64,000 nt of DNA from a virus (taxonomy: Duplodnaviria > Caudoviricetes), in the IMG/VR virus record IMGVR_UViG_3300021255_002065, positions 64,001 through 128,000 of that record; one strand, written 5' to 3'. The position numbers and the translations under genes are program-made. Of the stretch, positions 3 to 11,268 are shown in pieces. The notes beneath the pieces are model-generated. The model did no database searches, was not told where the DNA came from, and worked only from the letters and a program-made list of their open reading frames with translations. The first letter of the stretch is position 1. Each line of letters starts with the position of its first letter.

Positions 3-1286
3 GATACATCCGGCATTCAAGTGTTGTCAAAACCAACACAATATGACATTGCAAATGTAGCTGATGATGGTAATTACAATAAGTCTATCCCGAATTCACA
101 AATGAATTGGAAGTTTACTCCAGAAGGAATTCATGAAATTTATACAACTGCACCTACCAGACAAGGTGGACTGTTTATTCCGACAGATGCATCATTAATG
201 ACATACTCTTATGATGAATATGGTTTGAAACCAGAATTAAAGAATGCATCAACAGAATTAGCATCATCCAGAATTGATAACTGGTTTGCAAATACACCAT
301 ACCATCTGGATCAAACACAATTAGAATCTCATGAGGGCTATCTTAATAAACCAACATTTATTGGCATCAATCTTGTGAAATGGAAAAATGAGGTTGAAGA
401 TGGTGGTGACACTGCAATTACTTTAATCCCCATCTCTGGATTAAAAGTAATTGATGCATATGATGCTAATAAACATGGAGCATTAACATGGGCTGATTTA
501 GGACTGGATGAAACAGTTGATCATGAACGATTATTGAAAGATGCAAATGTCTTATCACCATTTGATTTACCTTTTACAGGTGGACTCATGGTGAATGTTG
601 GGAAAGGTTTGGAAATCATGCCAACAGCAGTACCAGAACATGGCGAGGATTTCAATACACAAGGGAAAGTGAATGTGCGTATCGGTAATGGTTTGACATT
701 TGATGATTATGGACGTATTGAAATTGCGGATGGTGCATTCGGTGCGGATACTTCATTTGATCGAATCGCCGAATTCCAATACGGAGATAAGTCTTATCAA
801 TATCTGAATGAGATTGTAAACAATCCAAATCGACATCAAATTATGCATGAAGATCAGTTGTTGGATGGTTCAGCAACAAAAACCATATTCCGTTTGGGCG
901 ATGGTTTACGATTAAAATATATCGAAGAGGATTTCCCACAACTTTTGTTATTCCAATTTACTATGTCACAATTGCGAAATAGTGGAATCTTTGATGAAAG
1001 TAATGTATTAGATGACATGACATTTGTTGATTTAAAAACAAGAATCGCAACATTGTATCATTCCACTGATGGGTTGGATTATGATAAATTGGTATCCGAT
1101 AGCAAATCCATTTTATATAAAAATGATTATGTGGAAAACTTTGTTAGCTATGGTATGTTATTACATCTGGGAGCTAGACTGGGTAAAACCGCAACAGAAT
1201 TGAGTATTGGATTAACAACGTCTGATCTTGAAACATTGTATGTTACAAAATATCCAGATTACGAGGGAAAAATAAAACCAGCATAA
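3..1286 (+). CDS. Putative tail fibre/baseplate-associated structural protein (5'-partial)
   Basis: Frame is open from the window edge (DTSGIQVLSKP...). Repeated [VF]x[VIL]G[KND]GL motifs (VNVGKGLEI, VRIGNGLTF, FRLGDGLRL) resemble beta-rich fibre shafts. Confidence 0.5.
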   Translation, partial: DTSGIQVLSKPTQYDIANVADDGNYNKSIPNSQMNWKFTPEGIHEIYTTAPTRQGGLFIPTDASLMTYSYDEYGLKPELKNASTELASSRIDNWFANTPYHLDQTQLESHEGYLNKPTFIGINLVKWKNEVEDGGDTAITLIPISGLKVIDAYDANKHGALTWADLGLDETVDHERLLKDANVLSPFDLPFTGGLMVNVGKGLEIMPTAVPEHGEDFNTQGKVNVRIGNGLTFDDYGRIEIADGAFGADTSFDRIAEFQYGDKSYQYLNEIVNNPNRHQIMHEDQLLDGSATKTIFRLGDGLRLKYIEEDFPQLLLFQFTMSQLRNSGIFDESNVLDDMTFVDLKTRIATLYHSTDGLDYDKLVSDSKSILYKNDYVENFVSYGMLLHLGARLGKTATELSIGLTTSDLETLYVTKYPDYEGKIKPA

Positions 1287-1299
1287 TGGAGGTGTTAAT

Positions 1300-2052
1300 A
1301 TGCCATTGATTGAATTGAATACGGGTGATGGTTTGTCCACTTCTAAATTACAAGTAAAATTGGATACTGTCACACCAAATAATGATTTATGTGTATACGC
1401 AGATGGATTATATGTGAACGGTAGCACCTCTGATGGTTCTGGTGGTATTAAATTGAAAAAGAAACTCCATTATTATTACATCAATACAGATATGAGTCCA
1501 TGGGATGCAAACTATAATGGAGATAATGACAAATTCGAGAATCACATCTGTTGTGATTGTCAAGCACATCGTTGTTGGGATGCTACATTTGATACAGATG
1601 ATGAAGCAACCAGAGTACCAACTTTAGTATCTGGAAAAAATGAAGAAGACAAATTTCGTCCGGAAATCGATTGGGTATTACCGGGAGATTTCTTCCGTGT
1701 CAAAGTAGATGAGAACAGATATGAATACTTCATCATCACGGAAGTATCACCAGGTCCAACAACAAGAACATGTTCTGGATGTGGTCAATTAATTTATCCC
1801 TATGATGGATATTGTAAACATGGCAATCCGAAATATTATTATAATCAAACTGATAATCCCGCATATGATCCTGAAGCAGAAGGAAATGAAGTAACAAGTG
1901 TGAATGAAAATAATTATGAAGCACCAAAGATTTGTCCGATCTGTGGACAACCCATACTAAAACAATCAACCGAAGGTGTGGATGAGTTAATCGGGTTGCC
2001 AGGTAATAAACCGGTATCTTGGGCTTCTTTAGGAATTGCAGGTGATTGGTAA
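1300..2052 (+). CDS. Putative fibre-associated protein with CxxC zinc ribbon
   Basis: GGAGG RBS; N-terminus MPLIELNTGDGL; CSGC...CPIC pairs; stop overlaps the next start (TAATG). Confidence 0.55.
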   Translation: MPLIELNTGDGLSTSKLQVKLDTVTPNNDLCVYADGLYVNGSTSDGSGGIKLKKKLHYYYINTDMSPWDANYNGDNDKFENHICCDCQAHRCWDATFDTDDEATRVPTLVSGKNEEDKFRPEIDWVLPGDFFRVKVDENRYEYFIITEVSPGPTTRTCSGCGQLIYPYDGYCKHGNPKYYYNQTDNPAYDPEAEGNEVTSVNENNYEAPKICPICGQPILKQSTEGVDELIGLPGNKPVSWASLGIAGDW

Positions 2053-2465
2053 TGCCAGTGATTGAAATTACAACAGATACATCATTGGTATCAAATGATG
2101 ATGGTTTGTCATTACAATTATCCAAACGATCGGCAAATCGATTGGAATTTAATGATAAAGGTGAATTGACATTAAAAGAGGTAAAGGCGACGGGTTATCT
2201 ACCATTGAATGGTGTCATCGGAGAATATGATGTCCCCATGGAACAAATTGGTGCTGATTCCTCATGTACACGTTTGGCAAACTGGAACGATACAAATGGT
2301 GACGTGAAAGAAACTGGAGCAACTGGAATAGAAGGTAGAGATGGTGTTAATTTGATCGGTCTGTTTACTGAACTCTTGACAAATGATGGATATGATTTAA
2401 GTGTTACCTTTTGGCCAAAGGAACCTTATGCCAAAAATGAAACATACAAAGGAGAGTGGAGTTAA
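2052..2465 (+). CDS. Small fibre-associated protein, N-terminus related to neighbours
   Basis: MPVIEITTDTSL resembles the N-termini of both neighbours; TAATG coupling at both ends. Confidence 0.55.
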   Translation: MPVIEITTDTSLVSNDDGLSLQLSKRSANRLEFNDKGELTLKEVKATGYLPLNGVIGEYDVPMEQIGADSSCTRLANWNDTNGDVKETGATGIEGRDGVNLIGLFTELLTNDGYDLSVTFWPKEPYAKNETYKGEWS

Positions 2466-3358
2466 TGCCATCGATTGATATTGAAGCTGGAAAGGGAATC
2501 AAAATCACCGATGATGGTGAACTCACTGTTGCATTGGATGCTTCTAAATCAACAGAATTAAAAGGTTCTGAAAATGGGATTTGGGCAAAGGGTCAGAAGA
2601 CACTCAGTGACCAATGTACGGATGAATGGAGTGTGATCACCAAACCAAATGAAACTGGTGATGAAAAAACCATTTATGGTAATGCCAGAGTTGTTGGAAA
2701 ATGTTATGTATTTTGCATGTTTCGAACAAGACGATTGTGGTCTTCTGATGATGCAGATGATCCAGACCGTGTTCGTATCCTTCGTACAAAAGACCCATCT
2801 GTCGCAACTGCAGATGATTTAAAATCCGCAGATGATTTGGTTCGAGAAATCAATTTACAACGCTTTTATGCAGCAAAAGAATCTGATGGTTCTTATGCTG
2901 GATCTCGAGTTATCCCGAGACCCGGTTCACTAATTGCATTTTCTGATGTGGTATATGGCACAACGGTTGGTTCAACAAGAATCTACGAAGATGGATCCAG
3001 ATTTCCTTGTTTGACTACTTATACAAAGAATGGAAATACCATTGAGAAGTTAACTGCTCCACAAAAGATTTATGCATTGTTCATGGTTACACGTGCACAA
3101 TATACAGAAGCTGGTGCAAATAAACAGAATTATTCCAAATCAACATTCCCGGGTGCAACACCATCTGCTTATCGATGCTTGATGAGGATTCGACTGAAAT
3201 GTTTGTGGAGTGATCAAACATCATTCCCAATCCTTGTGAATAGTTATGGATGGACAAAAGGTTCTTATTTACTAGGAACTCATGAATCAGCATCAAGAGA
3301 CTATGGTCAGTGGGATTTAACTAACATTTATGAAGACAGCCATTACAATATTTCATAA
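2465..3358 (+). CDS. Putative tail fibre/receptor-binding-type protein
   Basis: MPSIDIEAGKGIKITDDGELTV fibre-like N-terminal motif; coupled to the upstream stop. Confidence 0.5.
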   Translation: MPSIDIEAGKGIKITDDGELTVALDASKSTELKGSENGIWAKGQKTLSDQCTDEWSVITKPNETGDEKTIYGNARVVGKCYVFCMFRTRRLWSSDDADDPDRVRILRTKDPSVATADDLKSADDLVREINLQRFYAAKESDGSYAGSRVIPRPGSLIAFSDVVYGTTVGSTRIYEDGSRFPCLTTYTKNGNTIEKLTAPQKIYALFMVTRAQYTEAGANKQNYSKSTFPGATPSAYRCLMRIRLKCLWSDQTSFPILVNSYGWTKGSYLLGTHESASRDYGQWDLTNIYEDSHYNIS

Positions 3359-3386
3359 TAACATTTATTGTAGGAGGAATGCAAAT

Positions 3387-4742
3387 ATGCAAAAAGAATA
3401 CATTGCAAATGAACAAATGTCATTCAAGGATAAATCGTCATTAGCTGAAGAAAAACATGGTCTTCGTGGTGTCATTCAGATTTATCGTAAGAACAAAGAA
3501 ACTGGTGAAGTTTCATTCTGGGATGAAAGTGAGAACACGATCGTACTGGGTGGGTATCAATGGATATTGATGAAAATGTTCGGTTTGTTCTTGGACAGTT
3601 CTCATGGTAAAGTGACAGATGATTTGACAAGAGATACAACATTGGCAATTCCAGATTTGAATAACAGAATGCAAATTGGTGTCAATCCCGGTGAAGATAC
3701 ACCAGAAGGAAGTGCATCTGGTTCAATCGATGGATATACCAGAATGGAAGATAATATCGCCGTAAATCATATCTGCCAAGGATTCATGATTGGTAATGGT
3801 GGTGCTGGCGAAGATTCTGTCACCACAAAGAATACATCTTATTCCTTTATTAATCTCCGGAATCCAATTCCATTCCGTGAAACAACTTCTACTGATACAA
3901 CAACAGCTGGGAAATATCTTGGTTGTTACTTTGGTAATGAAGATGCGAATGCTGGTAAAATTGTAAAGGCAGCATACATTAAGAAGTTTGATTCCACTCC
4001 TCATATCTATCATTCTTGGTGGGTAGATGGTCAGAGATGGGATTATGTTGATCCAGTTACACAGAACTATCTTGGTCCTGATACAGATACAACTGTTTGG
4101 AAGACAAATCGTATTGAGACATATGTGGAATGCAAATTATCCATTTCCGATACGGATTGTCAAGATTACTTCAAGCATGCTGGCGTTACCAGTACTGCAC
4201 AAATCAATGAATTAGGTTTGGTTGCATTTGATACTGTTTTGGGTGAACGCTCTATCATCGAAACATGCTACAATCAAAAGATTTATGATTTCTTGAAGAT
4301 TGTATATACTGCAAAAGGTGATAAAACTCCCACATCCAATCAGAATAAGATGTTTAAGTTGTTAGCAACCGAAATCAAAACGATTCTGATGCCTCTTGCA
4401 TCTCAAATCAGTCAGAGCAATATCCAAGCATTCATTGAAGCAATTCCTGACTTTACTGCAGAAGATTTGGAATCTGATGAATATCCAGTTGAGAATTATC
4501 AGTTGCTGCAACAAGAATTTTCCGCTGATAGTAATATCGGTGCACAAGCATTCTATAATCAGGATGACACCATCCAGTATGTGGAAGATAATTTCTTGAC
4601 TAAATTGCAAGATGCTGATACAGTGAATTTGACATTGGACGAAGCACAGAGAATCAAACTGATCACATATTATACATTCAATAGTATTCCGATTTCTCAA
4701 AACTGGGAAATTCTGATTAACTATCGAATCTATGCAAATTAA
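3387..4742 (+). CDS. Putative baseplate/tail structural protein
   Basis: AGGAGG RBS; motifs ENTIVLGG, GFMIGNGG, INELGL and C-terminal INYRIY resemble myovirus baseplate/fibre-attachment proteins. Confidence 0.55.
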   Translation: MQKEYIANEQMSFKDKSSLAEEKHGLRGVIQIYRKNKETGEVSFWDESENTIVLGGYQWILMKMFGLFLDSSHGKVTDDLTRDTTLAIPDLNNRMQIGVNPGEDTPEGSASGSIDGYTRMEDNIAVNHICQGFMIGNGGAGEDSVTTKNTSYSFINLRNPIPFRETTSTDTTTAGKYLGCYFGNEDANAGKIVKAAYIKKFDSTPHIYHSWWVDGQRWDYVDPVTQNYLGPDTDTTVWKTNRIETYVECKLSISDTDCQDYFKHAGVTSTAQINELGLVAFDTVLGERSIIETCYNQKIYDFLKIVYTAKGDKTPTSNQNKMFKLLATEIKTILMPLASQISQSNIQAFIEAIPDFTAEDLESDEYPVENYQLLQQEFSADSNIGAQAFYNQDDTIQYVEDNFLTKLQDADTVNLTLDEAQRIKLITYYTFNSIPISQNWEILINYRIYAN

Positions 4743-4760
4743 ATAGGAGGAGGTGATTTC

Positions 4761-5360
4761 GTGTCTGATGTAAATCATGAAAATGAATTGAAGATGCGAG
4801 AGGAATATTCTAATTCCATACTGAATAATGTTGCAACTGTCATTGGATACTGGAGTCATATTGGTTGGTCTACGGTAAAGATTACAATTCCAATGGAACC
4901 AAAACCTTCCCAGAGACCTAGGTTGTCTGGATATCGGGTTTACGTCCCAGGAGCATACAAAAACACAGCTTTTTTCCATAAGAATGTATTACCCAAACTT
5001 GGTGATTTATGGATTAATACACCATGTAAAACTAAAATAGATATCTATGTTAAAACACCAACTTCTTTTTCCAAAGCACAAAAGTTATTGGCTGAGATGA
5101 AAATACTTCGCCCGTGGGTTAGAGCTGGTGATATAGACAACTTTGAAAAAAGTTGTCTGGATGCGATGGTTGGTAATAAAAAAAGAAAACATAAAGGAAT
5201 CATGTCAGATGATTGCATTGTCGTGGATATGGATTCGCACAAATACTATTCCATTACACCGAGATATGAAATTGAAATCACCTACATGAACAAAGTGCCA
5301 GAATGTATCAAACGAATTTTAAAAATCGAAGAACCTCAGCGAGAGGTTGACGGGGATTAA
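4761..5360 (+). CDS. rusA: RusA-like Holliday junction resolvase
   Basis: P.PSQRPR N-terminal motif, catalytic D(I)DN..K...D motif (GDIDNFEKSCLDA), later DD motif and KYY...PR.EI.I C-terminus. Confidence 0.85.
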   Translation: MSDVNHENELKMREEYSNSILNNVATVIGYWSHIGWSTVKITIPMEPKPSQRPRLSGYRVYVPGAYKNTAFFHKNVLPKLGDLWINTPCKTKIDIYVKTPTSFSKAQKLLAEMKILRPWVRAGDIDNFEKSCLDAMVGNKKRKHKGIMSDDCIVVDMDSHKYYSITPRYEIEITYMNKVPECIKRILKIEEPQREVDGD

Positions 5361-5369
5361 TCCCCGTCA
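5348..5369. terminator. Perfect 22-bp palindrome, probable bidirectional terminator
   Basis: TGACGGGGATTAATCCCCGTCA; the central TTAA holds the stop codons of both convergent genes. Confidence 0.65.
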
Positions 5370-6544
5370 TCTCTCATTTCATTTAACATTTTTCTTTTTA
5401 GATATTTCATATCATAAACAGTAACATGGTTCAATCCCAATCTATGAACTTCTTTGATTGCCTTAGATGGTGACATATCACATTTTTTGAGAATCTTCTT
5501 CAATATTTCTCTTTCATCCTCCTTTATTTTTCGATTAAGCTTCATATTTGGAAAATTAAATTCTTTCATTGATTCTTTTACAGTACTGATGTTGGCCACA
5601 GTAATATCAGTGTATCCCATTTCATGTAATTCTTTTAACACTGGATTTCTGTCACCATTATATTTGATTAACAATTCCCTTGTCAATTCTAATACATCAT
5701 CATATAACTTTTTATAGTGTAGGATAGTAACATTTTCTCCAGATTCAATAAAGAATTTCTTCGCATTCTGAACCATGCTAATTGAGATTTCATTGTATCC
5801 CATTTTGTGTAATTCGACAGTTGTTTCATGTGGATGCCAATCATTTCGGATAAGAACATCTTTTACTAATTTTAGTAAAAATGGATTCATAACAGATTTA
5901 CTCAGATTTGTCAATCTGGCATGTTGGTTGTTTTGTGCATATGTTACAACCTCGAGATTATCAATCCTATTGTTGTCAGTGAAGCCATCAATGTGATTGA
6001 CAATTAATTCGGGTGTCAATCCTAAAAATGCATTTGCAACGATTCTGTGAATGGGGTATGTCTTTCGAGTCCCGTCTTCGATTCTGAAGAATGATTGTTT
6101 ATATCCACAACAATATGTTCCATGTAAAGGTCCGATATTGTCATGTTTAATTCTACCCCATGACGATATGAAATATCTATTTTTGACGATGGGTGGTAAT
6201 TCCACTGGTTTCCAGATTTCGACATCTTCCACCCATTGAAGATTATCGACTGAGTTATCAGTTTTATCTCCATTGAGATGTAGAATTTCCAATTCTCCAG
6301 ATATTAATTCATCTGGGATTGGTATGAATGTTAATGCAACAAGTTTATCTGTGCGAACCAGGTGGTTTGAGTGAAAATCATCAAATACGACGAGATTGTA
6401 ACTATATCCATTCGTCGAAATATACGGTTCGACTAATGTTGGACTTCCGTTGATATTGTATCTAAAATTTCCTAATGTTGAAATTTCACAAAAGGATGCA
6501 ATTGATAAATCATTAACGGAGTTCCAAATTTCATTTTTTGTCAT
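5357..6544 (-). CDS. Free-standing HNH homing endonuclease (two NUMOD4-like/HNH units plus three C-terminal helical repeats)
   Basis: ISTLGNFR..LVALTF..HLNGDKTDNSVDNL and ISSWGRIK..HRIVANAF..NHIDGFTDNNRIDNL; inserted opposite to the surrounding operon. Confidence 0.9.
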   Translation of the reverse strand: MTKNEIWNSVNDLSIASFCEISTLGNFRYNINGSPTLVEPYISTNGYSYNLVVFDDFHSNHLVRTDKLVALTFIPIPDELISGELEILHLNGDKTDNSVDNLQWVEDVEIWKPVELPPIVKNRYFISSWGRIKHDNIGPLHGTYCCGYKQSFFRIEDGTRKTYPIHRIVANAFLGLTPELIVNHIDGFTDNNRIDNLEVVTYAQNNQHARLTNLSKSVMNPFLLKLVKDVLIRNDWHPHETTVELHKMGYNEISISMVQNAKKFFIESGENVTILHYKKLYDDVLELTRELLIKYNGDRNPVLKELHEMGYTDITVANISTVKESMKEFNFPNMKLNRKIKEDEREILKKILKKCDMSPSKAIKEVHRLGLNHVTVYDMKYLKRKMLNEMRDDGD

Positions 6545-6634
6545 ATGTGTAAACCTACTTTCTATGTTTATTTTTGAGACAATGGTGATTCATATCTCAG
6601 ATTAATATTATATATCTATCATTGTGATTTTATA

Positions 6635-6814
6635 TTGCAACCGAATAAGAAACGTGGTCACAGAGGAATCTTGGCTGATGATTCACTTGTATATGAAGTA
6701 TCTGCAAATAAGTATTATTCCATCACGCCACGATATGAAATCACCATCACATATATGACGAAGATTCCAGAATGTATTAAGAATATTATGAAATTAAGAA
6801 AGGTAGATGATTGA
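6635..6814 (+). pseudogene. Orphaned second copy of the rusA 3' end
   Basis: Translates LQPNKKRGHRGILADDSLVYEVSANKYYSITPRYEITITYMTKIPECIKNIMKLRKVDD*, clearly homologous to the RusA C-terminus. No evident RBS; its end overlaps the start of the next gene. Confidence 0.85.
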
Positions 6815-8408
6815 TATGCCACGTGATGAATACAAAGATTGGATAGCACGAAATGGTGGTCCGAGTGATGAAGATTATGAGACCACTATGGATACAATTG
6901 GTAATACAAAAGATTTATATAAATCTTCACTTGGTAGATTTCAAAAGGGAATGAAGAAAGCGAAAAGTACCAAATCTATTATTGGTATGGCTTCTCGTAA
7001 TACCTTTGATTTCCCTGTGTTTATTTCCAAGAGTGTACCTCTTGATTATGCAACTGCAACAACAATGTTATTGGAACAATTGTATGCGGCATATGTACAG
7101 ATGGCTGTATCTCAGAATCCATATGTTGATGCAAAGAGTGTTGAATGTGGTGGTCTATTAGCCAAGTTCAATACCAACATCACAAAGTATGTTGAATATG
7201 TTGCATTGACAGACACAGAATATCAACACGATGCTTGTCATAATGAAATCTATACGGAAGATGCAGAATTCATATTTGATATGATTGATGTATCTGATGA
7301 AGATGCAGAAGGTATTCTACAAGAAATGGATTATGAACCATTATCTGAATTCGATGACTTCTTCCAAGAAGGCGGCGGCGCCGGTGGTGGTGCTGGTGGT
7401 GGTGCCGGAGCCGGAGCAGGTGCTGGGGCTCCCGCTATTCCAGTTATGCAGGCAAGAAACATACAAGCTCGTCAGGATATTCAAAATGTCGATGCTCGCG
7501 GAAATCGTGTGGATTATGATGCACATGGGAATATTGTCGGACGTCATCGTGATACTCCTTTTGAGCAATATAACAGGGACGTATTCCGTCGTCGTCTTAA
7601 GAACAGAGCTGATTCCGAAAAAGCTGTTGCCGATGCTGAAATTGCTGCACGTGATTTGAAGAATTACAACAAACATGAACGTGAGAACACAGAAGGGCAT
7701 CGTATGAAGATGATGAATCGTTCTCCTGAAATATTAAAAGAGGAAGACATGAGAAAGATGAATTCCATGAAACCTTTATTGATGAAACTTCAGATGAGAG
7801 TGACTCGTCCAGGTCAGCCAGATGATCCACGTGAATTTGTAATCGGTGTACACTGTCATGCTCGTTTGATTGAACCATCCACATTGCCAGATGTTGTCAA
7901 GTTCCCATTGAAAGAGATGAATGCAATTGCTCGTCGTGCAAAATGGAAAGCTGGCGAATTGAAATTCATGAGAGATATCGTATTCCAGATTAAAGAAAGA
8001 AAACAAACCGCTGTCGATGCAAAGGATCCAAAACGCAAATGGTATCGTCGTTTATATGAATTAGCACATTCTAAAGGTGATGCAAATGTGTCTGGGGCTG
8101 TATCTGGAAATGGTACAACTGGTCTAATTCCGAATGCAACGATTATGATTACAAATGGAGATGTGGAAAGTATTAAATCTCAAACCAAACTTGATGTATT
8201 AAAACCATCATTGGCAAAGAGATTGTGTAATGAATTATTCCTCATTTCATTTGTGGTAATTGATCAAGATGCAGAATCAATCAAACTTTATATTCCTGAA
8301 TTATATAAAGATTGGGAAATCCATTCACTTGCAAGTGTTGAAAAACAGCTTGCTGAATTATCTACTGCAGGTTCTAAGACAAGAGACCTGTTCAAATTGA
8401 TTAAGTAA
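6807..8408 (+). CDS. Probable virion structural protein
   Basis: 533 aa; internal FFQE/G site followed by a Gly/Ala linker, matching the window-wide cleavage-type motif. Confidence 0.55.
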   Translation: MIDMPRDEYKDWIARNGGPSDEDYETTMDTIGNTKDLYKSSLGRFQKGMKKAKSTKSIIGMASRNTFDFPVFISKSVPLDYATATTMLLEQLYAAYVQMAVSQNPYVDAKSVECGGLLAKFNTNITKYVEYVALTDTEYQHDACHNEIYTEDAEFIFDMIDVSDEDAEGILQEMDYEPLSEFDDFFQEGGGAGGGAGGGAGAGAGAGAPAIPVMQARNIQARQDIQNVDARGNRVDYDAHGNIVGRHRDTPFEQYNRDVFRRRLKNRADSEKAVADAEIAARDLKNYNKHERENTEGHRMKMMNRSPEILKEEDMRKMNSMKPLLMKLQMRVTRPGQPDDPREFVIGVHCHARLIEPSTLPDVVKFPLKEMNAIARRAKWKAGELKFMRDIVFQIKERKQTAVDAKDPKRKWYRRLYELAHSKGDANVSGAVSGNGTTGLIPNATIMITNGDVESIKSQTKLDVLKPSLAKRLCNELFLISFVVIDQDAESIKLYIPELYKDWEIHSLASVEKQLAELSTAGSKTRDLFKLIK

Positions 8409-8423
8409 TAGGAGGGTTGATTT

Positions 8424-9599
8424 ATGAAAGAACCTGAAAGCAATTTAAAAGGAAATTTGTCGGATGATCAAATTCAAAAAGCCATTGTGAATGTGATGAA
8501 AGAATTAAATGACATTTATAAGAACAAAAGTTCCGATGAATACAAGATGGCAGGAGACATTACCAAGTCTCCTGTCTATGATGGAATTGAATCTGCTGTT
8601 GCAAATCTGAGTACATTAAAAGGTTTTCCAAAACAAGATGTCTCAGATTATCAGAATCTGTTTAATGCATTACACAAACCCATGTACAAGAAGATGGTTG
8701 CTGAATATCTGAAATCTCCGAATGAACAGAATACGGCATTTACAACAATCTTCACACTTGGTTATCGTACATTATTGGGAGATTTGTCACGTATCTATGC
8801 AGCAACAGAAGCCACAGAAAGTGGTATCGTATACCATCCTGACCAAGCTGCTAAACAACGTGCATTGACAAAATCCTTTATTAAAGCATTCAATAAGAAT
8901 ATTGATGATGAATACAACAAAGCTGTTCGTAGAAATGGAAATAAACCAAAGATGCATCAGGAAGGTGCTTTGTTCTCCGCAATTGGTTCTGGTGTTACCG
9001 CATTATCTACATTCTCTCGTGCACATGAACTTGGACCGATCACTGCATTCTTCCGTGACATTTTCAATTTCATCTTCGGTGCTCGAAAGGAATTGAATCC
9101 TATCTCCTTCATTAGTCATCGTTTGACCAAAAGTTATGATTCTTTGGTAGATCGATTCGAAGATACACAGAAGATGTATAATGCAACAAAAGAAGCTTAT
9201 GAAGAATATAAGAATTCTCCCGGAAGAAAAGATATGGCGATTGAAGGTAGATATCTGAGAAACCTTAAGAAATACAATATTGCCATGAAAACATTACAAG
9301 CAAAGCTTGCACACTATGACTCTCGTGCACAAGCAGAAGCTGAAGAAAAGATGTATAAAGCAAGAATGGAACAACGTCAGAAGATGAAAGAAGAAGCAGA
9401 AAGAAAGGCTTCTGAAAGAAAGGAGAATACAAGACCAACTCCCAAACCAGAACCGACACGTCCAACTCCTTCTATTCCAAAGCCAACAACATCTGTTCCA
9501 AAAGAAATGCCGAAGCCCGAACCTTCTCCATCTGAACAAAAACCAACGGAAGAGAAACCCAAACCACCAAAGGTTGACACGGGGGATCTTGATTTCTAA
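8424..9599 (+). CDS. Probable virion/head protein with coiled coil and Pro-rich tail
   Basis: GGAGG RBS; MHQE/G motif followed by an amphipathic segment; PKPEP repeats. Confidence 0.55.
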   Translation: MKEPESNLKGNLSDDQIQKAIVNVMKELNDIYKNKSSDEYKMAGDITKSPVYDGIESAVANLSTLKGFPKQDVSDYQNLFNALHKPMYKKMVAEYLKSPNEQNTAFTTIFTLGYRTLLGDLSRIYAATEATESGIVYHPDQAAKQRALTKSFIKAFNKNIDDEYNKAVRRNGNKPKMHQEGALFSAIGSGVTALSTFSRAHELGPITAFFRDIFNFIFGARKELNPISFISHRLTKSYDSLVDRFEDTQKMYNATKEAYEEYKNSPGRKDMAIEGRYLRNLKKYNIAMKTLQAKLAHYDSRAQAEAEEKMYKARMEQRQKMKEEAERKASERKENTRPTPKPEPTRPTPSIPKPTTSVPKEMPKPEPSPSEQKPTEEKPKPPKVDTGDLDF

Positions 9600-9612
9600 A
9601 ATGATATAATGT

Positions 9613-9632
9613 GAGGGCCCATATGGGCCCTC
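9613..9632. terminator. Perfect palindrome terminator
   Basis: GAGGGCCCATATGGGCCCTC followed by a T-rich tract. Confidence 0.7.
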
Positions 9633-9649
9633 TTCTATTTTTTTAATTT

Positions 9650-9783
9650 TGTATCTATATATAATTAATATGATATAGAAATATATCTATAATATTTCAT
9701 CCTTATGATCAACTCATAAGAACCTAAGTTGAATGCATATACACATAGGTCGATCATGTAGGATTCCAAAAGGAGGTAATCTT
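9650..9783 (+). promoter_or_regulatory. AT-rich putative early promoter plus structured 5' leader (copy A)
   Basis: TATAATTAATATGATATAGAAATATATC and the leader motifs TGATCA, TTGAATGCATATA, GTCGATCAT, GGATTCC-AAAAGGAGG recur at 50484-50615 (minus). Confidence 0.7.
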
Positions 9784-10311
9784 ATGAGAAGAATGTTTAG
9801 AGAATGCAGAGAGACCAGAGACGTTGAACGTCGCTGGAGCGAAAGACTGGAAGCAGCATCCAAATTTACTCAGTCTGAAGAGTTCAAATTATCAGAGGGA
9901 ATGTCCCCTGAGGAAAGAGCCAAATATGAAAGAATGGCGAGAGAACACCTGGGTATCCCGCAGGATGCTGAAGTAGACTGGTATGTGGCTGGCAAAATAG
10001 CAAAAGAAATTCTCGAAATCAAGCGAGATCAAAAACTTGGCAAAGGGAACATCCTCTTTGGAATCGGGAAGAAAAGCGATGAGGAAATCAAGGAAATCCT
10101 CGAAGCGAGGAAGCCTGAAATGCCTAAATTAAGAGAGGTTGAAAAGTCCCTCTCTAACGAAGGCGTACTTAAGGCTGAAACCCAACCGCAGCAGTCTCAG
10201 CAGTCTTATTCGGACAAATACCAGGCTGCAATGCAGGCAGCCCAGCAATTGGCATCTTCTGGTTACTATACACTGGAAGATGCCGTTCGCATTGTAATGG
10301 CAAATCTCTAA
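9784..10311 (+). CDS. Hypothetical accessory protein; C-terminal ~58 aa shared with the next ORF
   Basis: AGGAGG RBS; ends ...KYQAAMQAAQQLASSGYYTLEDAVRIVMANL. Confidence 0.75.
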   Translation: MRRMFRECRETRDVERRWSERLEAASKFTQSEEFKLSEGMSPEERAKYERMAREHLGIPQDAEVDWYVAGKIAKEILEIKRDQKLGKGNILFGIGKKSDEEIKEILEARKPEMPKLREVEKSLSNEGVLKAETQPQQSQQSYSDKYQAAMQAAQQLASSGYYTLEDAVRIVMANL

Positions 10312-10318
10312 AACAAGC

Positions 10319-10388
10319 GACCTGAGTAAGTCATTAAACTGCTCAATCATATACAAATAAGTCCAGCTCATGACTTGAGAAACCGAGC
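10319..10388 (+). ncRNA. Tandem H-type pseudoknot intergenic element (copy 1)
   Basis: GAC-CT-GAGT-AA-GTC..AAAC-T-GCTC then AAGTC-CA-GCTC-AT-GACTT..AAAC-C-GAGC; three near-identical copies in the window. Confidence 0.7.
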
Positions 10389-10410
10389 GTAATTAAAGGA
10401 GGAAATCATT

Positions 10411-10758
10411 ATGTTTGAATTCGGTAATTTTGAAGAAATCCGCGAAATAGACGAAATAGATGAACTCGATTCCAATACTTCTAATGGATACAAGTATACG
10501 AGTGCTGAAGTATGGAAGATGGGAAGAGCTGCTATTGAAAAGCTTTTTGAAGCCAACAAAGATATCTTATTCCCAGAGGTTGAAAAAGACCTCTCTAACG
10601 AAGGGGTATTGAGAGCTGAAACCAAGGCACAGGCTCAGGCACAGCAGCAATCTTACGATGAAAAGTATAGAGCTGCAATGCAGGCAGCTCAGGAGTTGGC
10701 AGCCTCTGGCTATTATACACTGGAACAGGCAATCCAGATTGTAATGGCGAATCTCTAA
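10411..10758 (+). CDS. Hypothetical accessory protein, C-terminal paralog of 9784-10311
   Basis: AGGAGG RBS; ends ...KYRAAMQAAQELAASGYYTLEQAIQIVMANL. Confidence 0.75.
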   Translation: MFEFGNFEEIREIDEIDELDSNTSNGYKYTSAEVWKMGRAAIEKLFEANKDILFPEVEKDLSNEGVLRAETKAQAQAQQQSYDEKYRAAMQAAQELAASGYYTLEQAIQIVMANL

Positions 10759-10765
10759 CAGTAAG

Positions 10766-10835
10766 CGACCTGAGTAAGTCGTTAAAACTGCTCAATCATA
10801 AACATAAGTCCAGCTCATGACTTGAGAAACCGAGC
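10766..10835 (+). ncRNA. Tandem H-type pseudoknot intergenic element (copy 2)
   Basis: Near-identical to 10319-10388; first stem extended to CGAC/GTCG. Confidence 0.7.
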
Positions 10836-10857
10836 ATACCCTAAGGAGGTAATTATT

Positions 10858-11190
10858 ATGAAAAATATTGTTCAATTTTTGCAGGCAGTCGAAATCGCTG
10901 ATATTATCAGCAAAGAGCTTCAGAATGACTCCAGATATCTTGCTGATTATATCCTGGAAGCTGCAAAAGAATCCGGGTATTATATCTGGTCTCAGTCAAT
11001 GGAGGTTGCTGAATCCGCAGTAAAATTATCAATTCCGGTACTGAAATACGTACCTGAACAAGAGTGTGATGCTTCAGTTATCTATAAAATCCAGGCTGCA
11101 TTTGTGATCAACAATATCAAACAGTTGGACGAGATGAAGACTGCAGAAAGAAAGGCTCATCAAGAGCCAACTTTCATGTATTTCATCTAA
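10858..11190 (+). CDS. Hypothetical accessory protein
   Basis: AAGGAGGT RBS before ATG 10858 (MKNIVQF...). Confidence 0.7.
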   Translation: MKNIVQFLQAVEIADIISKELQNDSRYLADYILEAAKESGYYIWSQSMEVAESAVKLSIPVLKYVPEQECDASVIYKIQAAFVINNIKQLDEMKTAERKAHQEPTFMYFI

Positions 11191-11197
11191 CAGAACA

Positions 11198-11268
11198 TCC
11201 CTGCTGAAAAGCAGGGAGGTGAGTATATGAATTATCGTATATTGACCTCTCTGCTTTTTTCTTTTCTT
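11198..11268 (+). terminator. Long-stem terminator/attenuator with an alternative upstream hairpin (copy A)
   Basis: AAAAGCAGGGAGGT...ACCTCTCTGCTTTT plus T tract; homologous copy at 49703-49772 (minus). Confidence 0.7.

Follow-up and report, generated by a model that had tools for sequence, protein, structure and literature searches.

The usual view is that a homing endonuclease spares the gene that it targets by residing in an intron or an intein, or by landing between genes. The free-standing HNH and GIY-YIG homing endonucleases of phages, such as SegF and MobE of T4, spread by "intronless homing", and their genes classically lie between genes or split the target, as in nrdA of Aeh1. A route in which the end of the target gene is itself replaced has been published for yeast and fungi. 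We did not find a phage precedent in a literature search, which returned no phage endonuclease with a carried replacement end and a duplicated orphan, and none involving rusA. Here we describe such a locus in a 64,000-nucleotide stretch of DNA (the window, bases 64001–128000 of a 148-kb IMG/VR virus record) from an uncultured jumbo phage, with relatives in JGI and Logan metagenomes, among them samples of pig gut. The locus is very probably a gene-end-replacing homing-endonuclease cassette inserted at codon 136/137 of rusA.

A full rusA gene, an antisense HNH gene and a diverged second copy of the rusA 3' end that overlaps the next gene (the orphan) were all present where the first-pass annotation of this DNA had located them, and the breakpoint lay, as it had said, just after the motif DxDNxxKxxxD. 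The main comparison was made with L002, a 295-kb IMG/VR phage that lacks the HNH gene and is 94% identical to the window in nucleotide sequence over the locus. Alleles that are uninvaded are called naive. The features are as follows.

4761–5360, plus strand: full-length hybrid rusA, 199 amino acids, GTG start, TAA stop at 5358–5360
4870–5138, plus strand: proposed left co-conversion tract, rusA codons 37–126, identity to L002 about 82%, against about 96% in the flanks
5139–5240, plus strand: strongly recoded block, codons 127–160, 44–53% nucleotide identity to the naive allele, spanning the insertion point
5169–5360, plus strand: replacement rusA 3' end, codons 137–199, the incoming copy of the duplicated part
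5348–5369: hairpin with a 9-bp stem and a TTAA loop, a probable bidirectional terminator
5357–6544, minus strand: I-HmuI-like HNH gene, convergent with rusA, 395 amino acids
6545–6637: spacer of 93 nucleotides from the HNH start to the orphan
6638–6814, plus strand: orphan rusA 3' end of native type, codons 137–194 of the naive gene
6807–8408, plus strand: next gene, virion structural, 533 amino acids, phrog_23804, adjoining rusA where the HNH gene is absent

The WHO elements of yeast occupy the aldolase gene FBA1, where allele-specific cleavage and gene conversion have been demonstrated (Coughlan et al. 2020, eLife; PMC7282813). They resemble the rusA locus in that the endonuclease gene lies between a full-length chimeric target and a fragment of the target's 3' end, and in that the history of the target's 5' part disagrees with that of its 3' part; each WHO integration swaps the 3' end for a resistant, diverged copy and leaves the downstream fragment as a homology arm (PMC7282813), as the rusA cassette would do. 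WHO proteins are derived from inteins of the LAGLIDADG family, whereas the window enzyme is an I-HmuI-like HNH protein, and WHO acts in diploid yeast meiosis, whereas the rusA cassette would act in phage co-infection. WHO loci hold clusters of several fragments and each rusA locus a single orphan. Unlike WHO, the rusA cassette has an antisense endonuclease gene that shares a stop and terminator hairpin with the target gene. Cleavage was shown experimentally for WHO and is predicted for the rusA cassette.

Comparable "gene hybrids" are formed by fungal mitochondrial mORFs in atp6 of Allomyces macrogynus and in atp6, atp9, cox2 and nad3 of Glomus (Beaudet et al. 2013, PMC3630166, citing Paquin et al. 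1994). There, too, a foreign C-terminus and an endonuclease open reading frame (ORF) are followed by a native C-terminus that matches a close relative, and the identity of the inserted versus the native end is 63.5% versus 91% for Glomus atp6 (PMC3630166) and 60% versus 81% for the window. The mORF enzymes are of the LAGLIDADG or GIY-YIG type, are often in phase and co-transcribed with the host gene, and act in an organelle setting; unlike the rusA cassette, mORFs have neither a terminator hairpin nor an antisense arrangement. The HNH_3 enzyme of the window is not homologous to the WHO/HO family or to the LAGLIDADG and GIY-YIG mORF families. The rusA cassette is thus a functional analogue of the WHO and mORF elements and not a member by descent.

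With the free-standing endonucleases of phages, the cassette shares an HNH_3 domain of I-HmuI type, a position next to a conserved DNA-metabolism gene, presence or absence among relatives, and co-conversion of flanking markers. The cassette of T4 mobA, gene 39 and gene 60, said to have been described by Bonocora et al. in 2011, reportedly leaves the gene split and involves a 50-nucleotide translational bypass. It is similar to the rusA cassette in that the endonuclease travels with extra sequence that would keep the invaded essential gene functional and shielded from self-cleavage, and it differs in that the rusA cassette brings an entire replacement for the 3' end and leaves the gene unsplit.

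A blastn search of window positions 4400–7400 against GenBank phages gave zero matches, and relatives were consequently drawn from IMG/VR and from metagenome proteins. A confirmed relative was not obtained from an IMG/VR scan with the HNH protein; homologues of this protein were found in the protein database instead. Genomic contexts were read for the window and for seven HNH homologues that differ from the window's own (loci L014–L024).

L002 carries no HNH gene, and its rusA, of 194 codons, has a stop that overlaps with the first bases of the 6807 orthologue. In blastn, window 3–5321 corresponded to L002 1243–6559 and window 6638–9696 to L002 6409–9476; the two L002 ranges overlap, so that L002 6409–6559 matches both copies in the window. 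The L002 rusA end was 81% identical to the orphan in nucleotides and about 90% in amino acids (6 of 57 codons non-synonymous), versus 60% nucleotide identity to the upstream copy; the upstream copy was likewise 60% identical to the orphan. The first-pass annotation had predicted that the rusA end of an HNH-less relative would match the orphan and adjoin the 6807 gene, and this was found in L002 and, in a cleaner pair, in L021 and L027 (below). The net insert relative to L002 is 5169–6637, 1469 bp in all, made up of the HNH gene together with the replacement end on one side and the spacer on the other. The reverse assignment, an imported orphan and a resident upstream end, was rejected, as naive relatives have the orphan-type end and its overlap with the next gene.

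Identity to L002 changed in steps along the locus. Within rusA it was 98% over codons 1–36, 82–83% over codons 37–126, 44% over codons 127–135, 53% over codons 136–160 and 73% over codons 161–188; in the orphan it was 87% at 6638–6667 and about 65% at 6668–6727, and from 6728 onward it was 93–100%, with the flanks of the locus about 96% identical in a sliding comparison. Codons 1–36 are resident-type and the remainder of the window rusA is imported. The expectation of a foreign replacement end was borne out, except that the foreign tract starts at about 4870 (codon 37) and not at the breakpoint, with a second identity step at codon 127. Such mosaic identity indicates that a preformed cassette entered by recombination, with co-conversion of codons 37–136 and of the first 90 nucleotides of the orphan. 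The window lineage therefore received about 4870–6727 from a related donor in which the cassette, orphan included, had already formed. Crossovers fell in the 5' part of rusA and within the orphan, a pattern as expected from double-strand-break repair with two-sided co-conversion, and the orphan is native in type but partly the donor's orphan, not purely the recipient's old end.

These identities also bear on whether the rusA 3' end was duplicated in place, diverged and later received the HNH gene, such that neither copy is foreign. The copies do flank the HNH gene in direct orientation, and parts of both are very similar in L019 and L021, yet the upstream copy in the window is 60% identical to the orphan in surroundings that are 94–96% identical to single-copy L002. 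Moreover, the divergence extends over the non-duplicated codons 37–136, and in a tree of the duplicated segment (below) the upstream copy falls with replacement ends from elsewhere in the family. We consider such a tandem duplication extremely improbable.

The arrangement recurs across lineages. The protein database held 17 clusters of close homologues of the window HNH protein (E ≤ 2e-45). The homologues read in context were P0002 (57% amino acid identity to the window HNH protein; L014), P0003 (54%; L016), P0004 (52%; L015), P0005 (43%; L017 and L018), P0006 (39%; L019), P0013 (37%; L021) and P0017 (37%; L023). In 7/7, the HNH gene lay antisense, on the upstream side of a 3' fragment of rusA, about 55 codons long, that started at codon 135–137 and adjoined the next gene. 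With the window included, the HNH gene and orphan were laid out in this way in 8/8 contexts, and a full rusA was visible as well in 7/8; the L016 contig (P0003) ends before rusA. Full-length rusA genes with a C-terminus equal to the orphan of the lineage were found in the database for several lineages, for example L014 (P0033), L023 (P0115) and L021 (P0059). Naive alleles and orphans have "...LIIESHTNKYYS" or close variants in common, and replacement ends read "...V(V/I)D(M/L)(D/E)(S/A)(H/K)KYYS".

A single ancient insertion, inherited vertically and repeatedly lost, could also leave an HNH gene in many lineages, which would now be resident (domesticated or idle) and no longer homing. HNH identity indeed falls with that of the flanking genes, from 57% in the nearest to 37% in the farthest lineages, the breakpoint lies at the same codon everywhere, and a near-identical HNH gene in an otherwise different phage was not seen. 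We nevertheless find this history decidedly unlikely. Naive alleles occur in genomes 94–98% identical to invaded ones (L002 and the window, L027 and L021), and deletion between the repeats cannot yield them, because codons 127–136 are not part of the repeat and both L002 and L027 have them in native form. Recent import is shown by the abrupt steps in mosaic identity at about 4870 and about 6728, and the HNH ORF is intact and full-length in every lineage.

The sister clade of L021 (invaded), L027 (naive) and L025 (HNH-less) provided a three-state comparison among groups of contigs with the same gene order and 92–98% nucleotide identity; the flanks of L021 and L027 were 94–98% identical. In a four-way alignment, the L021 rusA was nearly identical to the naive L027 allele up to nucleotide 382 (codon 128, just past GDVDNF), was heavily recoded from there through codon 160, was identical again over KYYS...PRYE and diverged once more at the end. 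The L021 orphan differed from the L027 native end at only about 4 positions. L027 cannot be derived from L021 by repeat deletion, since codons 128–136 are outside the repeat and are native in L027, so either L021 gained the cassette or a naive allele took over the locus, and in both cases the event must be recent. In L025, which has no HNH gene, codons 128–160 are of the recoded kind and run on into a native end. Such a chimera is what recombination between the 3' copies would yield, as would repair that ended within the shared central block, and it may be the footprint of either.

The window RusA protein covers positions 1–124 of the 124 of Pfam RusA (PF05866; E 2.9e-18) and matches phrog_140 (E 4e-26). 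Its AlphaFold 2 model (predicted local distance difference test score, pLDDT, of 85.9) matched E. coli RusA (1q8r) in Foldseek with E 1e-5 and a template modeling (TM) score of 0.73. PDB sequence searches with the single RusA sequence and with a 28-sequence profile matched nothing, so membership of the RusA family rests on Pfam and on the fold search. Codon 136/137 directly follows D124-x-D126-N127-x-x-K130-x-x-x-D134, which are invariant alignment columns, and D124, D126, N127, K130 and D151 are invariant across 28 RusA homologues. From the motif, the aspartate and lysine residues among these are candidate equivalents of the catalytic D70, D72, D91 and K76 of E. coli RusA. In the AlphaFold model, the junction is at the end of the helix after the DxDN motif, and the replaced part provides the last two strands and the loop with the invariant D151. 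The last 11 codons of the replacement end are an extension that runs into the hairpin. A group I intron or an intein was rejected as an explanation of the locus: an Rfam search of 4600–7000 found no intron family (the only match was a chance-level microRNA), the HNH gene points the other way, and no splicing is needed for a complete rusA.

The HNH protein matched Pfam HNH_3 (PF13392; E 7.8e-18) in two stretches and phrog_59 (E 3e-42), with a NUMOD4 match below the cut-off. Its only PDB sequence match was I-HmuI of phage SPO1 (1u3e; E 9e-5), and its C-terminal half consists of three helix-rich repeats. On these matches, the gene is a free-standing homing endonuclease of the I-HmuI class with predicted cleavage activity. 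The same phage has a second HNH_3 paralogue of 359 amino acids, 35% identical (L013, G000:C1:145701-146402; gene at 1144–2223, minus strand), directly upstream of a gene whose N-terminus resembles the GHKL ATPase of type II topoisomerase or gyrase B. This arrangement recalls T4, where mobA adjoins gene 39; tblastx around the L013 paralogue found no duplicated gene end.

The convergent rusA and HNH genes overlap by 4 nucleotides inside a perfect hairpin, and its TTAA loop gives both TAA stops. A terminator scan and folding of this hairpin (5348–5369) gave −25.5 kcal/mol with a z-score of −6.1. L014 and L015 have hairpins of the same design with wholly different stems (z −5.0 and −3.1), and the RusA and HNH proteins of each lineage share their last few residues (DGD, NGND, GEA). 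We regard the hairpin as the probable bidirectional terminator of both genes, and its conserved design in three lineages supports the earlier proposal that a terminator belongs to the mobile unit. Every HNH gene examined has its own Shine-Dalgarno sequence, which in the window lies on the minus strand in the spacer. The HNH gene may plausibly have its promoter in this spacer. The spacers of the window, L014 and L016 (printed side by side, not aligned) have the motifs GTGATTCAT and ATATATCTAT in common. A sigma-70 promoter scan of 4600–7000 gave fewer matches than shuffled sequence and none in the spacer between the HNH gene and the orphan, and the motifs in common with L014 and L016 showed no clear enrichment as promoter elements within the window. 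A sequence at 9680–9690, AATATATCTAT, resembles the spacer motif at 6609–6619.

The orphan homology at 6638–6814 extends over 59 codons (the listed ORF is 6635–6814). It was 61% identical to rusA residues 139–197 (tblastn E 4e-19, blastp E 8e-22), a similarity far beyond chance, and matched only positions 95–124 of Pfam RusA (E 5.6e-4). Its stop at 6812–6814 overlaps the next gene, which has its ATG at 6807; the native stop/start overlap is thus kept, and the last codons of the orphan hold a purine-rich stretch before this ATG. In L016, the orphan has a proline-to-leucine change at an invariant proline, and the L015 orphan, on a long branch of the tree, no longer has the N-x-x-R motif. These changed orphans appear to be decaying and to behave as relics rather than as genes. 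In homing, the orphan would serve as the right-hand homology arm.

The orphan might in addition be retained for a function of its own, as a ribosome-binding site, for translational coupling, as a promoter for the virion gene, or as a 57-amino-acid peptide that corresponds to the RusA tail. The frame is open in all eight lineages, a 57-amino-acid gene was annotated by gene callers in several of them, and the purine-rich stretch and the overlap are the elements that such a role would use. However, the window orphan can start only at a TTG and has no Shine-Dalgarno sequence, and the Met codons of the orphans in other lineages are simply native residues 135/136. The L015 and L016 orphans are altered at invariant RusA positions, the small differences of orphans from naive alleles fit a young age, and, judging from the model, a two-strand tail alone would be unable to form the RusA fold. 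A function of this kind is rather unlikely, and it is in any case compatible with the cassette explanation.

Whether the replacement end travels with the HNH gene was addressed with a tree of the 153-nucleotide duplicated segment, which was weak overall (1 starred branch of 19). In this tree, the window orphan grouped with the L016 orphan, L002 and L003 (95/88) and the window replacement end with those of L014 and L015 (84/87); a single origin of all replacement ends was not shown. Amino acid identities over codons 127–164, the rusA core and the orphans were 94%, 88% and 73% between the window and L014; 83%, 67% and 45% between the window and L015; and 94%, 73% and 76% between L021 and L023. 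The replacement block is thus more conserved than the rusA core among HNH-bearing lineages, a pattern consistent with a block passed on together with the endonuclease or kept under constraint by it. At least 3–4 types of replacement block exist, a number that suggests several specificities. With HNH identity declining as the flanking genes diverge, movement was probably mostly between related phages, as homology-dependent homing requires. The orphan at L017 4649–4876 (reverse-complement orientation) reads "DLESHKYYS", like replacement ends elsewhere and like the full-length P0045, and hints at possible successive invasions by cassettes of different specificity.

Several observations weigh against homing by such a cassette. 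The actual donor of the window cassette was not found, and the nearest other HNH protein is 57% identical. HNH divergence roughly tracks that of the flanking genes, so the history of the family could be largely vertical. The replacement ends and orphans of L019, L021 and L023 cluster by lineage in the poorly resolved 153-nucleotide tree. The window orphan, at 81% identity to the L002 end, is not simply the recipient's old end. Finally, L029, from the same JGI sample as L002, lacks both the HNH gene and the orphan and carries a hairpin after an end of replacement type: its positions 3145–3868 hold a 205-amino-acid rusA, a terminator-like hairpin, a 106-nucleotide spacer and a next gene with its own strong Shine-Dalgarno sequence. 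The HNH gene and the orphan may have disappeared from L029 in one loss, or L029 may represent a naturally resistant lineage of the kind from which the replacement end came. The first-pass annotation had named HNH-less relatives with an upstream-type end as evidence against its proposal; HNH-less alleles with upstream-type sequence exist in the chimera L025 and in the more distant L029, and the closest relative, L002, has the orphan-type end. We read the two as probable loss, abortive homing or source lineage, and not as a refutation.

In the mechanism that we propose, the mobile unit would consist of a foreign, recoded rusA 3' end, the stop and terminator hairpin, and an HNH gene of I-HmuI type that lies antisense and has a ribosome-binding site of its own. 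When two phages infect the same cell, the HNH enzyme would cut or nick the naive rusA around codons 127–140. The left end of the break would pair with the 5' part of the donor rusA, the right end (the naive 3' end and the next gene) would pair with the donor orphan, and repair would copy in the replacement end and the HNH gene. The outcome would be an intact chimeric rusA whose recoded block mismatches the target, and an orphan in which the left half of the site is missing and the translation-start region of the downstream virion gene is retained. Codons 127–160 would accordingly act as the region of recognition and immunity. The L021 orphan keeps native codons 137–160, from which we infer that the recognition site needs sequence to the left of codon 137; the orphan lacks this sequence and the hybrid has it rewritten, so both would escape cutting. 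Recombination between the 3' copies, or repair that resolves early, would remove the HNH gene and leave a recoded, presumably resistant allele.

The surroundings of the locus were also compared. The product of the next gene is 96% identical in amino acids to its L002 orthologue and is distantly similar to a virion protein of the Bacillus phages AR9 and PBS1. Within this gene, strong variation relative to L002 is confined to a Gly/Ala-rich repeat at window 7388–7447 (the GGGAGGGAGGGAGAGAGAGA stretch), with 46–70% identity versus >93% around it and with length variation. In L004, a more distant HNH-less relative, two paralogous genes (358 and 298 amino acids) lie between rusA and the 6807 orthologue (6566–8713), and the rusA stop still overlaps the following ORF. 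Further downstream, window 9697–11198 has about 1.3 kb more than the corresponding L002 9477–9671. This extra sequence carries the paralogous ORFs 9733–10311 (192 amino acids) and 10411–10758 (115 amino acids), which have their C-terminal approximately 55 amino acids in common, and a third ORF at 10822–11190.

The rusA locus would represent a third route for homing endonucleases in phages, in which the element carries a recoded spare end of its target gene. The case is unusually well documented by natural variation, with uninvaded, invaded and scarred alleles in near-identical genomes and with one architecture recurring in eight lineages. Annotation and phylogeny are misled by the chimeric rusA genes and the short "hypothetical" ORFs that cassettes of this kind produce, and the cassettes mark recombination boundaries in jumbo-phage genomes. 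They also suggest a family of HNH enzymes with long targets, for which the natural target and the resistant variants follow directly from sequence. We further put forward, tentatively and with somewhat less than even confidence, that codons 127–160 of rusA in this clade of gut and rumen jumbo phages are a battleground on which several cassette families (the window/L014/L015, L021/L023, L017 and L019 types) cycle from naive to invaded to recoded HNH-less to re-invaded alleles. If so, the orphan would be a required homology arm, coevolution of endonuclease and target would drive the hypervariability of this stretch of RusA, and gene-end replacement would be a general, unpublished way for phage homing endonucleases to enter conserved coding sequence with neither intron nor intein.

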